From Candidatus Gottesmanbacteria bacterium (GTDB taxonomy: Bacteria; Patescibacteriota; Microgenomatia; UBA10105; UBA927): a stretch of DNA of 64,000 nt. Shown one piece after another: positions 46,501-64,000 of the stretch. The stretch spans positions 640,696 to 704,695 of the forward strand of contig CAWBPL010000002.1 of assembly GCA_963790805.1 (NCBI GenBank), in the 5' to 3' direction. The notes under the pieces were generated by a model. The model made no database searches. It was not told the origin of the DNA and saw only the letters and a list, made by a program, of their open reading frames with translations. Both the position numbers and the translations under genes were made by a program. Position 1 is the first letter of the stretch; each line of letters starts with the position of its first letter.

Positions 46501-54231
<7,731 letters not shown>

Positions 54232-55340
54232 TAAAAGCCTGATAATCAGATAAATTAGATAACATTAGACTGTCCATATATATACTTAACCTTATATATA
54301 ATAAGCGTGTCAATAGGTTTGTTGATATATTTAAGTACTAATCAGATATGGTACTCAAAAGCATGGATTGTGGAATGTACTATCAATAATAGGGATATTT
54401 CACGAATTACCGCATAGATATAAAGAAGGTATTAATAATATTATTAATATTTTTAATCAATAGATATTGATTAAAAAAAATGAATATACTGTAATTATTT
54501 CCCGCGACCAGAGTTTTACAGTTTATTGAGACAAACGCGTGAAAAGGCGATAGAGTAACCTAAATTATCTTTATGACCTGTAATGATTAGTTTAATCACC
54601 TTATAGTAAAATCAGCTTTGGAACACTCATTATTGATACTCTCAGATATGTAATTAGTCAATATATATTGATATATGGACTCTTAGCATTCTTAACAGTT
54701 TTGTGCTATTAGTAATTTTGCTTATTGTATTGCCCTAAAACGATCATCACATTAACACACTTTTCAGTTTATATTGTTATAAGTCTTTGTTCGGTTTTTT
54801 GTAATAATACTCAAAAAATGTTGAAGCTAAATAATCGTAAGAAATAGGGGTTGGCAATTACATTCTATGAGTGCCATTATTGTTTTAGCTTATATTTTCG
54901 TGCCAAAAATGATTTGTTATACCCTAGAAGAAGTGAGGCGAGGGTAAAATATAAGACATAGAAATTTATAAGGAATGAGGCAAGGCTATTCGCAAACAGC
55001 ACTCCTAAAGTGCTTATTGGTTTAGATTGATCTAACGTTGTTTTATTGTGTTACATTGAATGAAAATTTATAAAACTGATCATACATGAAGTTATAAGCA
55101 CTCTTTCAAGTTTGGATTGTTATAGTAATATATCGGTATTTATTCGTTTATAATTATAGGTTTATAAAAACTCATATTAACCTCTTTGTTGTATTTGAAT
55201 ATCCCGTAGTTAGTAAAACGGTTTGCGTGAGATATGCGTGTGAAAATATTGGTTTAGCTACCGTATTTTTAGGTCACTGGAATGACCTACAAGGGGCAAT
55301 AGAAAGTAAAGATGTAAAATTGGTACGTATATAATATATA
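54232..55340. other. 1.1-kb AT-rich non-coding region between the giant gene and leuS
   Basis: No ORF of 60 aa or more occurs in any frame. The region is visibly AT-rich. It contains a perfect 18-nt palindrome ATTAATAATATTATTAAT (54431-54448). It also contains the inverted repeat AATCAATA-ga-TATTGATT (54455-54472). Confidence 0.7.
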
Positions 55341-57892
55341 ATGAAGCGCATGAGACAGTCTTCGTATCCACATAACGAGATAGAAAGAATGGCAGAACGC
55401 TTGGGAAAAGGCGAGAGTTGATATTGTTGATATAACGAAAGCCAAAAAACCTTTTTATAACCTCATGATGTTTCCATATCCGTCAGCTGAAGGGCTTCAC
55501 GTTGGAAACATGTATGCATTTACCGGATCTGATATTTATGGTCGATTTAAACGGATGCAGGGCTACGATGTCTTTGAACCAATCGGGCTTGGATGGATTC
55601 GGAATTCATAGCGAAAATTATGCTTTAAAAATCGGGCGGCACCCTATGGATCACGCAACGATAACGGAAAAAAATTATTATAATCAGTTGCATAAGATCG
55701 GTGCGATGTTTGATTGGACCCGGACAGTGGAGACATATGATACAGATTATTATAGATGGACACAGTGGCTGTTTGTTCAGATGTTTAAGCATGGTTTAGC
55801 TTATCGCAGCAAGGCGGAAGTTAACTTTTGTCCGAGCTGTAAGACGGTATTGGCAGATGAACAGGTGATTGATGGAAAGTGTGAACGATGCGGTAATATT
55901 GTAGAGAAAAGATTGTTGGAACAATGGTTTTTTAAGATTACCGCATATGCGGGGAAACTGCTGGAAAACTCATTTAGCCTCGATTGGTCGGAAAAAGTAA
56001 AAGTGGCACAAAAAAATTGGATCGGGAAAAAAGAGGGGATAGAAATTACTTACCCGGTAGTTGATGAGAAAAATAATCAAATAGGAAACGTAACATGCTT
56101 CACAACTCGGCCTGATACGAACTTCGGTGCCACATTTGTTGTCATTGCGCCCGAACATCCTTTTGTCAGTCAAGCACTTAAAGTGACAAAAAATGAACAG
56201 CGCGTCAAAATAACCAAATACGTTTCCGAAGCAAAAATGAAATCAGAAGACGATCGGATACAGGAAGGAAGAAAGAAAACTGGGGTCGATACAACGCTCT
56301 ATTGTGTTAATCAGCTCAACGGAACGAAGATGCCGTTGTATATTTCTGATTTTGTGCTCATGAATTTTGGCACCGGAGCGGTTGTCGGCGTGCCCGGACA
56401 TGACATGCGCGATTTTGAATTTGCGACAATGTTTCATATTCCCGTCATTCGAGTCGTTGTCGGTTCGGATGGTGATAAAAGCCCAATTACAAAAAAAGAG
56501 CAAGTGCAGGAAGAAGAAGGCGTCATGATCAATTCTGAATTTTTAGACGGCAAAGATATTCATAAAGCGACCATTGAGATGATGGATTATTTGGAGAAAA
56601 AGGGTTGGGGGAAGCGCGTTACGACGTACCATTTGCGCGATTGGCTTATTAGCCGCCAGCGCTATTGGGGACCGCCGATACCGATGATTTATTGTTTGGA
56701 ATGTGAAAAAAGAGGTAAGGGTGAACGAAGTGAAATGCAGGGTTGGTACAGCGTGCCGGATAAAGATCTTCCCGTCGTATTGCCGAAAATTGAAGATTAC
56801 AGGCCGGGAAATGACGGTATAGCGCCCTTAGCAAAACATAAAGATTTTTATAATGTGGCATGCCCTGCGTGCGGTAGGTAGCGCGACGGGAAACTGATGT
56901 TTCCGATACATTTCTGGATAGCTCATGGTATTTTCTTCGCTATCCATCTGTTGGCAATGCTAAGGTCTCCCGCCAGCGCGGGATCCCCGCATTGCCTTTT
57001 GATCCAGCGATTACGAAAAAATGGCTGCCTGTCCATATGTATACCGGAGGCGCGGAGCATAGCGTATTGCACCTTATGTACAGCCGTTTTGTGACCATGG
57101 CGCTCAAAGACTGGGGATATATCAATTTTGAGGAACCGTTCAGCACGTTTTTACGCACATGGATTGGTGATTAAAGATGGTGCAAAAATGAGCAAAAGCA
57201 AGGGGAATATCGTTAATCCGGATGAATATATCGCTCTCTATGGCGCCGATGCGCTTCGCATGTATCTTATGTTCATGGGGCCGTTTGATCAGGGCGGTGA
57301 TTTTCGTGATGCCGCAATGGAAGGGATGAGCCGCTGGGTCGGCCGGGTATGGCGTCTGGGAGAGGCTGTCCGGACAAAGAAAGCGAGCTCATCGGTTAAA
57401 ATTCATGGAGCATTGCAAAAACTGATTAAAAAAGTGACGGATGATCTGGAAAAACGCCGCTACAATACCGCAATTGCTTCGATGATGGAATTTACCAACC
57501 TTGTTGCGGATGAATCTGACGCGATAAGTACCGACGACTATACAACGCTTCTGCTTCTTATGGCGCCCTTTGCGCCGTATATCACTGAGGAGCTTTGGCA
57601 AACAATGCATAATAATAATTCTGCTAAAGAATTTCAGGCGAACGATTCTATTCATCACCACGCATGGCCTGCGTACGATCTTACCGGTATAAAAGAAGAA
57701 GAAACGGCATTTGTGGTGCAGGTAAACGGGAAGCTTCGGGATACCATGACGGTTTCTGTTGAAAAAAGTAAGAATCAAGGAGAAATGGAAGCATTGGCGA
57801 AGGCGTCGGAACGGATTAAACGATATATTGCCGATAAAAAAATTATAAAAGTCATTTTTATATCCGGCAAGCTTCTCAATTTTGTTGTTTAA
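55341..57892 (+). pseudogene. leuS: Leucyl-tRNA synthetase gene interrupted by four frame changes (pseudogene or locally error-rich assembly)
   Basis: LeuRS sequence is recoverable only by joining frames. Positions 55341-55388 read MKRMRQSSYPHNEIE. Positions 55390-55590 read WQNAWEKA...MFPYPSAEGLHVGNMYAFTG...EPIGL. Positions 55592-56878 read DGFGIHSENY...CPACG. Positions 56878-57150 read VARRETDVSDTFLDSSWYFLRY...EEPFSTF. Positions 57152-57892 read YAHGLVIKDGAKMSKSKGN to the stop. Confidence 0.8.
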
Positions 57893-58754: not shown

Positions 58755-59831
58755 ATGACGTTGGATTTGTTTACAGGGCTTATTAACGGTCTGTTGCCGG
58801 AACCTCATGCCGGTTTATTAAACGGAATTTTATTTGGTGTCAAGACGACATTGAATCCGGATCTTCAACAATCTCTTTTAAAATCCGGTACATCATATAT
58901 TTTAGCGCACTCTGGTATGAATATTTCCATCCTCGTTGGTATATCAAATCTCCTACTTCTTCGCTTTGTTCGTAGACCTATAGCAAATTTGGTTTCTGTG
59001 ATAATCATTATAGGGTATGTTTGGTTAGTGGGAATAACACCGAGCGTACTTCGTGCGGCGCTTATGGCCGCGATATCTTTGGCAGCCGTATCATTGGGTC
59101 GTCAAAACTGGACTCTATTAAGTTGGGTATTGGCGGTCGGTATTATGCTTATTATTAATCCCCTGTGGATCGGCGATGTTTCATTTCAGATTTCAGTCAT
59201 GGCCACCTTAGGGATAATTGTGTTTGGAGGCAAAAAATCTCACGCGGGGAGGCTCACAATTTTGAGCACCGTCACGCGCAGGAACTCCACGTCAGCAGGC
59301 TCTTTACCAATGCGCGCGCAGGTCACAAACGAAAATTTAGACGCATCTTCAGTTTCTCTCGTGAACTCAGCTCCAACTCTTCATACGTTGGATTCTCACT
59401 CGCAAAGTGAAGCTGCGCAAAATTTTGTTAGCTCCCCGCGCGGGAGGGCTTTTTCGCGTCCACATCATCCACCAATCTTAAGCCTTCTTGACGGATACGC
59501 AACAAATTGCGCGCCGACCAAAGCGATTGCAAAATTTATATGGTCTTTGATCGCAGATGACCTTCGGGTTACCCTCGCCGCTCAAGCGTTTACGATTCCC
59601 ATCATCATCTTTCAATTCCATCAGATATCGCTTGTCTCTCCCCTTTCGAATATCCTTATTGGCTGGCTGATTGCGCCGGTTATGGCTTTGGGCTTTGCGC
59701 TCGTCATTGGTGGTCTTTTGTGGGCGCCGATCGGTATGATATTCGCTTGGATTGTTTTTGTCCCGTTGTCATACATCATTCTTGTTATTGATTTGACGAG
59801 CAAACTGCCGTTTGCAAGTTTGTCGTGGTGA
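58755..59831 (+). CDS. comEC: ComEC/Rec2 competence channel, membrane (competence) domain part; carries an in-frame repeat-element insertion
   Basis: LPEPHAGLLNGILFGVKTTLNPDLQQSLLKSGTSYILAHSGMNISIL is the ComEC signature region. The ORF ends at TGA 59829-59831, which is in frame with the next ORF. Confidence 0.75.
   Translation: MTLDLFTGLINGLLPEPHAGLLNGILFGVKTTLNPDLQQSLLKSGTSYILAHSGMNISILVGISNLLLLRFVRRPIANLVSVIIIIGYVWLVGITPSVLRAALMAAISLAAVSLGRQNWTLLSWVLAVGIMLIINPLWIGDVSFQISVMATLGIIVFGGKKSHAGRLTILSTVTRRNSTSAGSLPMRAQVTNENLDASSVSLVNSAPTLHTLDSHSQSEAAQNFVSSPRGRAFSRPHHPPILSLLDGYATNCAPTKAIAKFIWSLIADDLRVTLAAQAFTIPIIIFQFHQISLVSPLSNILIGWLIAPVMALGFALVIGGLLWAPIGMIFAWIVFVPLSYIILVIDLTSKLPFASLSW
59240..59535 (-). 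repeat. Palindromic repeat element, copy C (composite, about 290 nt), inserted in-frame inside comEC
   Basis: The reverse complement of 59262-59287 (gttcctgcgcgtgacggtgctcaaaat) is nearly identical to 170-196. Positions 59480-59494 (aagccttcttgacgg) are an exact reverse-complement match to 39844-39858. An internal inverted duplicate pairs 59242-59270 with 59412-59443. Confidence 0.65.
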
Positions 59832-59843
59832 GTTTATGAGCGT

Positions 59844-60740
59844 ATGAAATTGCGAGTCGGATACCTTATCTGCGGAATTACTACAGGGTTGATTATCCTT
59901 ATTGGATTTATATGGACTCAGCCCGACGGGTTGCTCCATATTGTTTTTTGCAATGTCGGCCAAGGCGATAGCGCGTATGTCCGTTTTCCGGACGGGCGCG
60001 ATATGCTTGTTGATGGTGGTCCGGATAACGGGTTAGCGCTTACCTGCCTTGGTCGCCATATGCCATTTTGGGATAGGCATATCAATATTGTCGTCATGTC
60101 GCATCCGCAGGCTGACCATATGGGAGGGCTCGTTGAGGTTTTTAAGCGGTTTTCCGTTGATTATTTTGTGCGAAGTGATGCCGACAATAATACTGATATT
60201 TACAAAAGCCTTCTTACCGCCGTGAATGAACGGCATGTACCTGTCCGGTACGTAACTGCCGGAGATCAAATTGCAATTGGATCCACTTCCCTTCTGATGA
60301 TTTGGCCCTCTTTTGAACAACTTGCGCGTGCTAAACCTACAGCTGAGACAGTGGCTCATGTGGGTGTTGCAGTCGGCAACCTGAACGACGACTGCCTGGT
60401 TTTTGTGTTGCGGTATGGAAATTTCGATGCAGTTTTTCCGGGAGATGCAGACCGTGATGTTGAGGCTAATTACACCGGACTACAGGTCTTTCACAATCCT
60501 GTAGAAATTCTTAAAGTGCCGCATCACGGAAGTAAAACCGGTATGAATTTAGCTTTTATTGACTGGCTAAAACCACAATTAGCAGTAATCTCGGTCGGGA
60601 AGAATACATACGGTCAGCCTGCAAAAGAGGCTGTTGATATGCTCCAAAACGTTGGTTCACGCGTGTTGCGGACTGATCAAAAAGGCGACATAGAAGTAAC
60701 AAGCGACGGAATACGTTGGTCAGTAAAAACGGAAAAATAG
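59844..60740 (+). CDS. comEC: ComEC C-terminal metallo-beta-lactamase domain part
   Basis: It has a TM helix followed by FCNVGQGDSAYVRFPDGRDMLVDGG, SHPQADHMGG (HxHxDH-type) and LKVPHHGSKTG. Confidence 0.8.
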   Translation: MKLRVGYLICGITTGLIILIGFIWTQPDGLLHIVFCNVGQGDSAYVRFPDGRDMLVDGGPDNGLALTCLGRHMPFWDRHINIVVMSHPQADHMGGLVEVFKRFSVDYFVRSDADNNTDIYKSLLTAVNERHVPVRYVTAGDQIAIGSTSLLMIWPSFEQLARAKPTAETVAHVGVAVGNLNDDCLVFVLRYGNFDAVFPGDADRDVEANYTGLQVFHNPVEILKVPHHGSKTGMNLAFIDWLKPQLAVISVGKNTYGQPAKEAVDMLQNVGSRVLRTDQKGDIEVTSDGIRWSVKTEK

Positions 60741-62149: not shown

Positions 62150-62178
62150 TTGACAAGTATGTTTTAGAGTAGTAAACT
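62150..62178 (+). promoter_or_regulatory. Sigma70-type promoter of the argS leader
   Basis: TTGACA (62150-62155), a 17-nt spacer, then TAAACT (62173-62178). Confidence 0.55.
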
Positions 62179-62204
62179 AATTTTTCTTAACATTTAAATA
62201 TATG

Positions 62205-62497
62205 TGGCGTTGAAGGAGAAAGTCCGATCAGATCGGACCTCGAGCTCCTTTACCCTGATACTGTTCCTAGTGAAGGGCGAGCCGGTTTCCGAAAAAATCT
62301 TTACCCAGAGCGAAAGCTAGGGTACAGGAAAGTAGGAAACATAAATGAGCTAATTGCAACTTCTGTCAAGGCATTTACAGGAGTTTTGTTTGTCCCCGTG
62401 ACAAGCGATTAGAAATGAAGGTGGCACCACGGTTTTAAACCGTCCTTTTGAGCCTCCTACCCTCTTTAGGGTACGAGGCTTAAGCGGACGGTTTTTT
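62205..62497 (+). promoter_or_regulatory. T-box riboswitch leader (tRNA-sensing transcription attenuator) upstream of argS
   Basis: The T-box sequence is AAGGUGGCACCACGG (62418-62432). It forms a canonical antiterminator: A1 AAGG/CCUU, a 7-nt bulge UGGCACC, A2 ACGG/CCGU and the loop UUUUAAA. A competing terminator follows. The 5' UGAAGGAGAAAGU is a K-turn/S-turn-like element. Confidence 0.8.
62437..62497 (+). terminator. Intrinsic terminator of the T-box leader
   Basis: ACCGUCC (62439-62445) pairs with GGACGGU (62486-62492). Inside it are the helices GAGCCUC/GAGGCUU and UACCCU-cuuu-AGGGUA. A U6 run follows (62492-62497). Confidence 0.75.
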
Positions 62498-62677
62498 GGT
62501 GGGAATTTTGCGATCCGCCAGCCGGCGGAGAGCTTAATTTCCGATCAATCCGCCGAAGCCTTAGCGAAGGTGGATTGTGGGAAAAAGTATTTTCTCCTGT
62601 AGTATGTAAACTACCGGAAGAGGGTATTGGTACTTGATGTTTTATGATCTACTTTATTGAGTCAAAATAGTGGTATT

Positions 62678-64000
62678 ATGGAGAAAACTATGAAAAATGA
62701 AATTCAGGTATTTATTGCGGGAATCGTCCAATCATTGGGGATTAATCCCGCAAGTATTGTCATAGAAGCGCCGGAAAATGCAGAACACGGTGACTATACG
62801 ACGAATGTTGCGATGACGCTCGCGGGGCATCTAAAGGCTCCGCCGATGAAAATAGCTGAAAAAATTGTTGATGCCATCAAAGAATATCAAAAAAAATCAC
62901 CTCTTGAGTGGTTGGATAGGGTAGAGATAGCCCCTCCGGGCTTCATAAACCTGTTTCTCTCCGAAGCTAGTCTCAGCACTGAGCTTGCCGAAGTGCTAAA
63001 AGAAAAAGAGCGCTACGGCCGGACGCGTTATACAGGTATTACACAGTTCGGCGTGCCAAAAAACGGCCAAAAAACGGCTCGTGCCACATCACTAAAAAGT
63101 ACACAAGAACAGAATGGGAAAATACCTGAAAAATCACCCCAAAATCACAGCATAGTTCAGCCTTCAACATTCACGCATGCGGAAAAAACAGCAGAGAAGG
63201 GCAAAATAGCCTTATTCGGGAATAAAAAAACGATCATGGTCGAGTTTGCCCATCCCAATACTCATAAAGCATTTCACATCGGACATCTTCGCAATATCAC
63301 GACAGGCGAAAGCGTCGTCCGATTACTTGAATCGCAGGGATATTGCGTAATTAGAGCGAACTATCAGGGTGATGTGGGCATGCATATTGCTAAGGCATTG
63401 TATGCCCTGTTAAACGTTTCCCCATTTAAAGAGGAAGTATCGAAGGTTACTGGTATAAAAAACCGCGTAGAGTTTTTAGGAAAGGCGTACGCCGCCGGCA
63501 GCAAGGCGTTTGAAGAATCGGAAGATGTAAAGAAAATTATTGGTGATATCAATATAAAAATTTATGCAAAAGATCCTTCCGTCTATCCTGTATATCGTGA
63601 AACACGGCAATGGAGCCTTGATTACTTCGAAACCATTTATAAACTCGTAGGAAGTCACTTTGACCGGTATTATTTTGAAAGTGAAACGTACGAAACGGGA
63701 AAAACGTATGTCTTGGAAGGGTTAAAGAAGGGGATTTTTGAAAAAAGTGATGGAGCAATTATATTCCCCGGTGAAAAATACGGACTTCATAATCGTGTTT
63801 TTGTTAACTCAGAGGGCAACGCGACGTATGAAGGGAAGGATATGGGTCTTGCGCGTCTGCAATTTGATGAGTATAACCCAGAGGTCATTGTTCATTGTGT
63901 GGGACCCGAACAGGCAGGCTACTTTCAGGTGATGTTCAAAGCGCTAGAATATCTTTTTCCCGATACAAAAGGCAGGGAAAAGCATCTCATTTACGGCTGG
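62678..64000 (+). CDS. argS: Arginyl-tRNA synthetase (5' part; continues beyond the window end)
   Basis: The frame is open from ATG 62678 (second ATG at 62690) to the window edge, 441 codons. It is absent from the ORF track because no stop codon lies in the window. The N-terminal Add-1-like region carries GDYTTNVAM. The HIGH motif is AHPNTHKAFHIGHLRN, followed by ANYQGDVGMHIAK. Confidence 0.9.
   Translation, partial: MEKTMKNEIQVFIAGIVQSLGINPASIVIEAPENAEHGDYTTNVAMTLAGHLKAPPMKIAEKIVDAIKEYQKKSPLEWLDRVEIAPPGFINLFLSEASLSTELAEVLKEKERYGRTRYTGITQFGVPKNGQKTARATSLKSTQEQNGKIPEKSPQNHSIVQPSTFTHAEKTAEKGKIALFGNKKTIMVEFAHPNTHKAFHIGHLRNITTGESVVRLLESQGYCVIRANYQGDVGMHIAKALYALLNVSPFKEEVSKVTGIKNRVEFLGKAYAAGSKAFEESEDVKKIIGDINIKIYAKDPSVYPVYRETRQWSLDYFETIYKLVGSHFDRYYFESETYETGKTYVLEGLKKGIFEKSDGAIIFPGEKYGLHNRVFVNSEGNATYEGKDMGLARLQFDEYNPEVIVHCVGPEQAGYFQVMFKALEYLFPDTKGREKHLIYGW

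Follow-up and report, generated by a model that had tools for sequence, protein, structure and literature searches.

A putative arginine-specific, transcription-terminating T-box leader with a truncated Stem I upstream of argS in a Gottesmanbacteria genome, and its relatives in the Candidate Phyla Radiation

Can a T-box riboswitch control transcription termination with a Stem I that has no platform for the tRNA elbow, and is such an element at work in a bacterium of the Candidate Phyla Radiation (CPR)? The question is raised by the leader of argS, the gene for arginine--tRNA ligase (ArgRS), near the end of a 64,000-nucleotide stretch of Candidatus Gottesmanbacteria DNA (contig CAWBPL010000002.1; the whole of this stretch is called the window below). 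An initial annotation, made from the letters of the sequence, had placed there a T-box with an apparently ultrashort Stem I and a CGA (Arg) specifier codon. The element does lie upstream of argS, as annotated: the open reading frame (ORF) that starts at ATG 62690 encodes ArgRS (TIGR00456, 1.2e-56) with 100% identity to a protein of 659 aa. We find that the leader belongs to a conserved family, for which the comparison of leaders supports an Arg-specific, transcription-terminating T-box with a truncated Stem I lacking the platform, because relatives share the specifier, covarying helices, arginine genes, the UGGC bulge and terminators. We estimate at about 85% the probability that the window leader responds to tRNA-Arg as an attenuator, or did so until recently.

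The family comprises 22 distinct leaders, namely that of the window, 16 from reference loci, those of L082, L083 and L085, which are closer metagenomic relatives, and those of L101 and L119. Reference genomes supplied 80 CPR argS loci; in 16 of these, all in the lineage nearest the window, a T-box core was found on the same strand as argS. A metagenome scan for cores of any specificity, using the pattern GTCAAGGC-N42-72-RGGTGGNACCA, contributed L101 and L119, both Arg-type and the only real leaders among the matches listed; the other listed matches were mostly chance occurrences in GC-rich coding DNA. Given that the nearest relatives of its ArgRS belong to Gottesmanbacteria and other Patescibacteria/Microgenomates, the genome was rightly described as CPR-like. 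A T-box here had been expected to be an unusual phylogenetic occurrence; the leader is however no singular case, as the 16 of 80 loci indicate.

All 22 leaders carry UCGAG (20) or UCGAA (2), so that CGA and the purine after it are invariant, and they do so directly 5' of the 3' strand of helix P1. Two Stem I architectures present this motif. In nine leaders, the window's included, UCGAG stands at the end of the 3' strand of an internal loop, and a short, variable hairpin caps this loop. The other thirteen have no cap; there UCGAR itself makes up the five-nucleotide terminal loop (pentaloop) of a helix of 4-5 bp seated on a kink-turn (K-turn), as in GGC-GAUGAU-GGUG-UCGAG-CACC-GGA-GCC; one of the thirteen, L083, has a three-way junction instead of the K-turn. 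The Stem I of these pentaloop leaders has no other unpaired stretch able to hold a specifier.

Because MAFFT failed to register both architectures, splitting them and moving the 3' strand of Stem III by one column, RNAalifold on the unedited leaders was dropped, and pairing was assessed in segments at fixed offsets from UGA, UCGAR, GA, GAARAAA and AAGUA and by anchored complementarity. Across the 21 leaders counted, 99.6% of cells were paired and 10 of 12 pairs had changed on both sides, with 61 such cells. The covariation score was 0.719 as against 0.192 in shuffles, none of 500 of which scored as high, and sliding the partners by 1-3 columns left 32-46% paired. P1 covaries at 4/4 pairs (GGAG/CUCC, GAGG/CCUC, GGUG/CACC, GCAU/AUGC, GGAU/AUCC, CCAU/AUGG, GGGG/CCCC), as does the basal helix P0 of 3-4 bp (GGC/GCC, GAC/GUC, AGC/GCU, GCC/GGC), and between the two the relatives carry a K-turn-type motif with GNUGA-N on the 5' strand and N-GA on the 3' strand. 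Since it stands directly 5' of the covarying P1, CGA with its purine occupies the T-box specifier position. These data support CGA as a putative Arg specifier that matches the arginine genes behind the leaders, in agreement with the original assignment for argS. It is not a rare codon, as CGA makes up 18.6% of the Arg codons in the window's ORFs. A preference for 3'-A specifiers in Arg T-boxes is noted in TBDB (PMC7778990). The idea that CUCGAG represents an XhoI site was rejected, as this hexamer occurs in one subtype only.

The minimum free energy (MFE) fold of the window copy contains Stem I, and the pairing of GGAG with CUCC and the position of CGA followed by G agree to the nucleotide with the initial annotation (Table 1). 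"Ultrashort" applies less well: Stem I is truncated, but the window has an intermediate form with internal loop and cap, the cap being variable or missing among relatives, and truly ultrashort forms occur in relatives, 12 of the 22 leaders having the Stem I feature of the ultrashort class (e.g. GGUG-UCGAG-CACC). Neither an AG bulge nor a distal-loop platform for the tRNA elbow was found in the window's Stem I, whether in the sequence, in the fold or in the RF00230 alignment. Relative to L082 (CUCC-UGA-GCC), the window has 30 additional nucleotides between CUCC and GA-GCC. The UGA of the K-turn-type strand is invariant (21/21 leaders); in the window UGAA (62211-62214) pairs with 62249-62252, and in the fold of 62204-62285 the Stem I domain takes the form of a three-way junction (-29.2 kcal/mol). 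As modelled, the insertion at 62249-62278 converts the K-turn into this junction. L083, with other sequences, folds into the same topology. The RF00230 alignment takes hairpin 62253-62277 for Stem II; we rejected this assignment, as L082 is without the hairpin and the true Stem II lies downstream.

The antiterminator had been annotated with the right elements and with limits one base too wide at each end (62417-62448 instead of 62418-62447). That a terminator with a U6 tract overlaps it is borne out, and this hairpin is part of the MFE fold. The base of its 5' arm is the 3' half of the antiterminator, CCGUCCUU, and folded alone the terminator reaches -35.6 kcal/mol. The MFE fold of 62201-62500, which includes Stem I and the terminator, has -114 kcal/mol (z = -5.9), and none of 200 shuffles was equally stable. 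The UGGC bulge is present in 22/22 family leaders. A terminator of -19 to -45 kcal/mol that reuses the 3' strand of the antiterminator and is followed by U5-U8 was found in 20 of 21 leaders folded and, by eye, in L018; the terminator of L003 lies beyond the stretch folded, and the count is thus 21/22. Because the terminators overlap the antiterminators, we conclude that the family acts on transcription.

At the gathering threshold no Rfam family matches the window, and none matches in eight homologous loci. Under permissive settings RF00230, the T-box family whose model had been suggested as a check, is the top match: its full model aligns at 62201-62450 with 32.6 bits, short of the curated gathering score of 93, and with E-values of 1.7e-5 for the leader alone and 0.0018 when all 64 kb are searched with the full set of 4227 families. 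Alignment is nearly perfect in the discriminator half, and 72 Stem I positions of the model are reduced to 17 nt. RF00230 is likewise the top Rfam match in five relatives, at 27-45 bits (six loci in all). By itself this result is suggestive, not conclusive.

How would such a leader work? Transcription would begin at the conserved TTGACA-N17-TAAACT promoter; in the leader comparison the motif GGGGUAUUGACA...UAGUAAAxU is also found upstream of homologous leaders. A decoding module would then form, in which the truncated Stem I shows CGA and the 3' purine beside P1 and the S-turn-type AGUA/GAA motif of Stem II assists; in the window a three-way junction would stand in for the K-turn of the relatives. 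The anticodon of a tRNA-Arg would pair with CGA. The expected isoacceptor is UCG, possibly ICG: UCGAR would be complementary to U33-U34-C35-G36-A37 of tRNA-Arg(UCG), and an ACG/ICG tRNA would pair through I-A. In the uncharged state this tRNA would pair through its 3' end (predicted G73-C-C-A) with the bulge UGGC and lock the antiterminator. A charged tRNA could not stabilise the antiterminator, CCGUCCUU would enter the 52-nt terminator hairpin, and transcription would stop at the U6 tract. UGGN-NCCA pairing and the logic of the specifier are established for T-boxes (PMC7778990).

Table 1. Features of the argS leader in the window (coordinates are window positions)
Feature	Position	Strand	Details
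Promoter-like site TTGACA-17 nt-TAAACT	62150..62178	+	10/12 matches in promoter scan
P0 5' strand UGGC	62205..62208	+	Closes Stem I domain; pairs with 62281-62284 (fold of 62204-62285)
K-turn-type 5' strand GUUGAA (GNUGA "GA motif")	62209..62214	+	UGAA absorbed into extended P1 here
P1 5' strand GGAG	62215..62218	+	Partner CUCC 62245-62248
Specifier-loop 5' side AAAGU and short cap hairpin CCGAUCAGAUCGG	62219..62236	+	Cap at 62224-62236, 13 nt
Specifier-loop 3' side ACCU-CGA-G	62237..62244	+	Putative specifier CGA (Arg) 62241-62243; conserved purine G62244
P1 3' strand CUCC	62245..62248	+	Fold and covariation
Lineage-specific insertion	62249..62278	+	UUUA pairs with UGAA, lengthening P1 to 8 bp; then hairpin 62253-62277
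GA (K-turn 3' dinucleotide, kept) and P0 3' strand GCCG	62279..62284	+	GA-G invariant in family alignment
Stem II	62285..62340	+	Base helix GUUUCC 62285-90/GGAAAC 62335-40; distal hairpin 62298-62329, GAAA loop
S-turn-type strands of Stem II	GAAAAAA 62291-97, AAGUA 62330-34	+	Family motifs GAARAAA/AAGUA
Purine-rich linker AUAAAUGAG (RRRxG...RAG)	62341..62349	+	Joins Stem II straight to Stem III
Stem III	62350..62412	+	Outer helix CUAAUUGC 62350-57/GCGAUUAG 62405-12; two hairpins within loop
Stem III inserted hairpins	H1 62360-62383; H2 62390-62404	+	H1 loop with conserved UGUCAAGGC 62364-72; H2 variable
T-box antiterminator	62418..62447	+	A1 AAGG 62418-21/CCUU 62444-47; A2 ACGG 62429-32/CCGU 62440-43, loop UUUUAAA
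Antiterminator bulge UGGCACC, 7 nt	62422-28	+	Between A1 and A2
Intrinsic terminator	62440..62497	+	Hairpin 62440-62491 (52 nt), U6 62492-62497
Terminator-argS spacer, 192 nt	62498..62689	+	Final ~60 nt, including GGAG ribosome-binding site, common to L082
argS (arginine--tRNA ligase)	62690..64000	+	Start ATG 62690; putatively regulated gene; continues past window end

Stem II of the window has a fold z of -5.1, and in the family its GAARAAA strand is invariant and AAGUA nearly so, the two flanking a variable hairpin over a base helix that covaries at 4/5 pairs. Judged by this motif, Stem II would carry an S-turn (AGUA/GAA, the loop E motif). The purine-rich linker (AAAUGAG) measures 8-12 nt in nearly all leaders and 18 nt in L024; the definitions of its RRRxG and RAG motifs are those of PMC7583486 and PMC11297988. 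No IIA/B pseudoknot with an F-box was found in its usual position between Stem II and Stem III, where the linker leaves no space. By the anchored complementarity test, 17 of 18 leaders can pair 7/7 positions of the outer Stem III helix, whose sequence takes 13 different forms, and the purine flanks of Stem III are present (AAAUG-AG on the 5' side, AAA on the 3' side).

Stem III is enlarged by an insertion of two hairpins with GUCAAGGC in 19/22 leaders. The first of them, H1, has a loop C-Y-GUCAAGGC and covaries from CG to UA; L012, L014 and L020 have no insertion and a plain Stem III, the outer helix of which is identical to that of L010. The H1 loop is almost invariant as C-Y-GUCAAGGC-A (window 62364-62372; 18 relatives, e.g. 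L005 4978-5000). The loop opens with six bases that are similar to the F-box in the IIA/B pseudoknot (CCGUUA; CGUCA in ileS of Mycobacterium tuberculosis). This F-box-like CYGUCA is placed elsewhere, within the insertion of Stem III, and lies on the 5' side of its helix. No conserved pairing partner was found for the loop. An alternative IIA-like hairpin ending in CCGUCA was rejected in favour of the covarying H1, because it is not conserved. It is conceivable that the inserted hairpin provides a new contact to the tRNA or a tertiary contact; an artificially lengthened Stem III has been reported to tighten tRNA binding ~6-fold. Five members carry an additional hairpin directly 5' of the K-turn (L002 8120-8140, L004 8372-8392, L006, L024, L085 6334-6352), of the form CCCGG-UGAAAUU-CC(A)GGG, with a 7-nt loop that opens with the T-loop-like UGAAA, and this hairpin might stand in for a tertiary contact or for one to the tRNA.

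In most relatives the leader lies 1.5-5 kb before argS, with other genes in between. Behind the leaders are argH (TIGR00838, 8e-104), argG (NF001770, 1e-143), two ornithine-carbamoyltransferase-like genes and argS, and in a few loci other genes take the place of the arg genes. L083 is syntenic with the window, both having leuS, comEA, comEC, a metallo-beta-lactamase (MBL) gene and a 448-aa ORF, and there the order continues as leader-argH-EamA-argG-argS; the window genome has therefore lost argH-EamA-argG and kept the leader directly before argS. The same leader-argS arrangement is found in L082, the closest relative, whose ArgRS is 73% identical. Because of the synteny with L083 the 192-nt spacer before argS may be read as the scar of the lost genes. 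Apart from the part shared with L082 it is particular to the window genome, with GC-rich hairpins at ~62513-62530 and ~62546-62577, both missing in L082.

Several features of these neighbourhoods are recorded here in their own right. A gene for an EamA-family transporter lies within the putatively T-box-controlled arg operon (L083 7411-8367, L018 9081-10001), either between argH and argG or before argS, and its product may transport arginine or a precursor. A small deaminase beside argS in L083 was considered as TadA and rejected; it is a cytidine deaminase (CDA), and no CDA-type motif was found in the window, results that have no bearing on an ICG tRNA. ComEC appears to be split into 58755-59831 (Competence/ComEC N-terminal domain) and 59844-60740 (metallo-beta-lactamase domain), and is likewise split in L083. 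ArgRS residues ~115-180 (window 63030-63240), between the N-terminal domain and the catalytic core, form a lineage-variable low-complexity insertion, whose columns show no consensus among 27 relatives.

A question remains, how firmly does the T-box interpretation stand against the observations that count against it? The canonical K-turn is disrupted in the window copy, where UGAA is paired and a hairpin precedes the retained GA, and the K-turn is considered essential where a short Stem I works with Stem II (PMC7583486). CGA never varies within the family, so that its members offer no covariation of the codon. In relatives CGA is displayed in a tiny loop, a pentaloop that RNAfold closes to a triloop. 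The RF00230 score is far under 93, and no family member attains the gathering score. No tRNA-Arg with an NCG anticodon was detected by ARAGORN in the window and 86 loci; the sole tRNA-Arg genes detected belong to other CPR lineages and encode CCU isoacceptors with A73, which are not those that a CGA specifier would select. These lineages are without the Gottesmanbacteria-type leader, and only L043 among them has a T-box, of another type. ARAGORN found no tRNA gene of any kind in the window or in any family locus, nor is there one in the adjoining assembly sequence (6 kb past argS, 220 nt before the window's first gene). The 192-nt spacer, finally, could be the site of a second promoter. As a separate observation, a tRNA-Pro(CGG) and tRNA-Arg(CCU) gene pair, the latter with A73, recurs a few kb from argS on either side in L037, L043, L049, L054, L057 and L076, which are Woese-, Levy- and Shapirobacteria-like.

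Given the broken K-turn, the leader might be a decaying relic, inherited with the lost arg operon and blind to tRNA, now a leaky constitutive terminator or inert, with argS transcribed from a promoter in the spacer. The absence of argH, EamA and argG relative to the syntenic L083, the insertion that breaks a K-turn layout kept in L082, the long spacer ahead of argS and the reported need for a K-turn in a short Stem I that cooperates with Stem II (PMC7583486) all fit such a history. Yet every other element is intact, from the promoter, P0, P1 and UCGAG through the Stem II strands, RAG linker and Stem III to UGGCACC, A1/A2, the terminator and U6. The leader-argS arrangement is kept in the second lineage, L082, with compensatory differences in the hairpins. 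L083 retains argH and argG behind a leader with a three-way-junction topology like the window's, and L039 appears by eye to share the junction, which its MFE fold did not reproduce. No promoter-like site in the spacer passed the scan, in which a weak GGGUAUUGGUAC...UACUUU near 62612-62650 fell short. Because the remainder is intact and L083 still has argH/argG behind the same junction, we regard an impaired copy as unlikely.

The leader could also be a T-box in which no anticodon reads UCGAR as an Arg codon; UCGAR might instead be a structural motif, pair with the tRNA T-loop (UUCGA), or be read in another frame (UCG Ser, GAG/GAA Glu). Its invariance is what a structural motif would show, UCGA is self-complementary, the loop has just 5 nt in many members, and UCGAR is complementary to T-psi-C-G-A of the T-loop. 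In a folded tRNA, however, the T-loop is not free to pair. The genes behind the leaders are those of arginine biosynthesis and ArgRS throughout, three nucleotides and a purine directly 5' of the closing helix are the canonical specifier position, and the pentaloop members offer no other place for a specifier. Moreover, the purine after CGA is G or A, as the conserved purine varies, and L039, of an independent class, has CGC and G in the equivalent loop. Misreading of the codon is thus quite improbable, more so than decay. Least probable of all is that there is no T-box, and that an ordinary structured 5' UTR with an intrinsic terminator, perhaps serving protein- or ribosome-mediated attenuation, resembles the core by chance. 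The sub-threshold Rfam score, and a case built from sequence comparison, leave room for this idea, against which the 14-nt core AGGUGGCACCACGG, with a 7-nt bulge between helices that the terminator reuses, recurs in 22 leaders; the T-box model tops Rfam in six separate loci; and a K-turn-type motif, Stem II with its S-turn-type strands and RAG-Stem III-AA follow one another in the correct order. The + strand of the leader has no ORF of at least 40 aa, the cut-off of the scan, shorter leader peptides being outside it. The tRNA-Arg-responsive T-box attenuator thus remains the preferred interpretation of this leader.

With which of the known T-box systems does the family belong? Ultrashort (US) and intermediate Stem I T-boxes of actinobacterial ileS were reportedly described by Sherwood, Grundy and Henkin in 2015. 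The US class is described as translational, with the specifier in a terminal loop, and as limited to ileS of Actinobacteria (bioRxiv 10.1101/2023.02.28.530422). Compared with the US/intermediate ileS class, for which structures from M. tuberculosis, Nocardia farcinica and Mycobacterium smegmatis are available, the family likewise lacks the double T-loop platform that binds the elbow. A K-turn-type motif at the base of Stem I is common to both, in most members of the family although not in the window, where the junction replaces it, and many members share the terminal-loop specifier on a very short helix, whereas the window copy has an internal loop with a cap. The S-turn Stem II beside the specifier and the discriminator (Stem III, UGGN bulge) are alike (PMC7583486, PMC11297988, bioRxiv 10.1101/2023.02.28.530422). 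The differences lie in the output and in the tRNA. Where the ileS class sequesters a ribosome-binding site, the family has a terminator and U-tract, which in the window ends 192 nt before the start codon; where the US elements respond to tRNA-Ile before ileS, the family appears Arg-specific (CGA, arg operon, argS) and is found in Gottesmanbacteria-like CPR. The IIA/B pseudoknot of the ileS class is also missing from the family, most members of which have instead the conserved two-hairpin insertion of Stem III.

The class I T-boxes of Firmicutes (RF00230) share with the family the specifier, the UGGN bulge, an antiterminator that excludes a terminator with U-tract, and arg or aminoacyl-tRNA synthetase genes as targets. 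T-boxes before argG, argC and argH are known in Clostridioides difficile (PMC11477304), and Arg T-boxes are listed in TBDB (PMC7778990), whose short-Stem-I model is used only for Actinobacteria and class I hits. Class I members have a long Stem I, in which an AG bulge and a distal loop stack on the tRNA elbow; the family is without that region and without a IIA/B pseudoknot in the usual place, and scores 27-45 bits with RF00230 against the gathering score of 93. Transcriptional T-boxes are generally held to need a long Stem I with elbow contact (PMC7583486, PMC11297988). Like glyQS-type T-boxes, the family is transcriptional, has no IIA/B pseudoknot and joins the decoding and discriminator modules by a short linker; glyQS-type leaders lack Stem II and possess the long Stem I platform, and in the family the reverse is true. 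The family thus joins a truncated Stem I and Stem II S-turn of ileS type, the absence of the pseudoknot as in glyQS, a terminator of class I type and an enlarged Stem III of its own. Hitherto these features had been described in separate T-box types only. In the literature searched, with the classical T-box surveys outside it, we found no paper that links T-boxes to Patescibacteria, CPR or Microgenomates.

We further find T-boxes of different types before arg operons or argS at three other CPR argS loci, L021, L039 and L043. All have a terminator, and their bulge, UGGU, would predict A73. Each type is known from one example and has no covariation support. L021 7669-7930 (Levybacteria) has a Stem II and an IIA-like CGG...CCGUAA, and scores 27.9 bits with RF00230. 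L039 6120-6480 precedes argH-argG-argS and by eye forms a three-way junction, with a hairpin GGAA[GUCGCGA]UUCC showing CGC and G. L043 8300-8520 (Woesebacteria) is a minimal leader of ~110 nt, GC-GUUUGAU-UGGG[GUUCGAAU]CCCA-AGA-GC, apparently without Stem II and Stem III. Rfam scored the three leaders at 27.9 bits at most or missed them. Arg codons in short hairpin loops before arginine genes (CGC in L039, CGA in L043) fit with the reading of CGA as specifier, and the three loci suggest a wide distribution of T-box-controlled arginine genes among Microgenomates.

No other T-box core was found in ~1.5 Mb of CPR DNA flanking argS, and the window holds no second T-box-like core, none being present upstream of leuS. 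That upstream region, 54232-55351, is 1.1 kb without an ORF, has 29% G+C (window mean 44.5%) and lies between leuS and a single giant minus-strand ORF of 2576 aa (46501-54231); it has no Rfam match. Among L001-L078 many records of metagenome-assembled genomes are labelled "uncultured Gammaproteobacteria" or "Pseudomonadales" (binchicken assemblies), and one "Bathyarchaeia", and they encode ArgRS and neighbours of CPR/Microgenomates type; these titles look like mislabels.

What, then, would the family mean for T-box biology? We tentatively propose, at somewhat short of even odds, that it represents a distinct T-box class in Gottesmanbacteria-like CPR, which terminates transcription without elbow platform and IIA/B pseudoknot; in its smallest form CGA sits in a pentaloop flanked by U and R on a K-turn, and in some members, including the window, a junction does the job of the K-turn. 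If this is true, the window leader would be a natural T-box that contains Stem II and operates without a K-turn; the window, L083 and L039 copies are natural candidates for the question, raised in a review, of such a T-box. The family runs counter to two generalisations, that transcriptional T-boxes need a long Stem I and elbow contact (PMC7583486) and that terminal-loop ultrashort T-boxes are all translational regulators of ileS (bioRxiv 10.1101/2023.02.28.530422). A natural family of terminator type without a platform would be a useful test of how tRNA is captured fast enough during transcription. To standard annotation it is invisible, and because its members score 27-45 bits against the Rfam threshold of 93, a dedicated covariance model is needed to map it. 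It offers a cis-regulatory RNA in CPR bacteria, whose gene regulation is little known, and it indicates that the reduced genomes of these bacteria still monitor the charging of tRNA-Arg.

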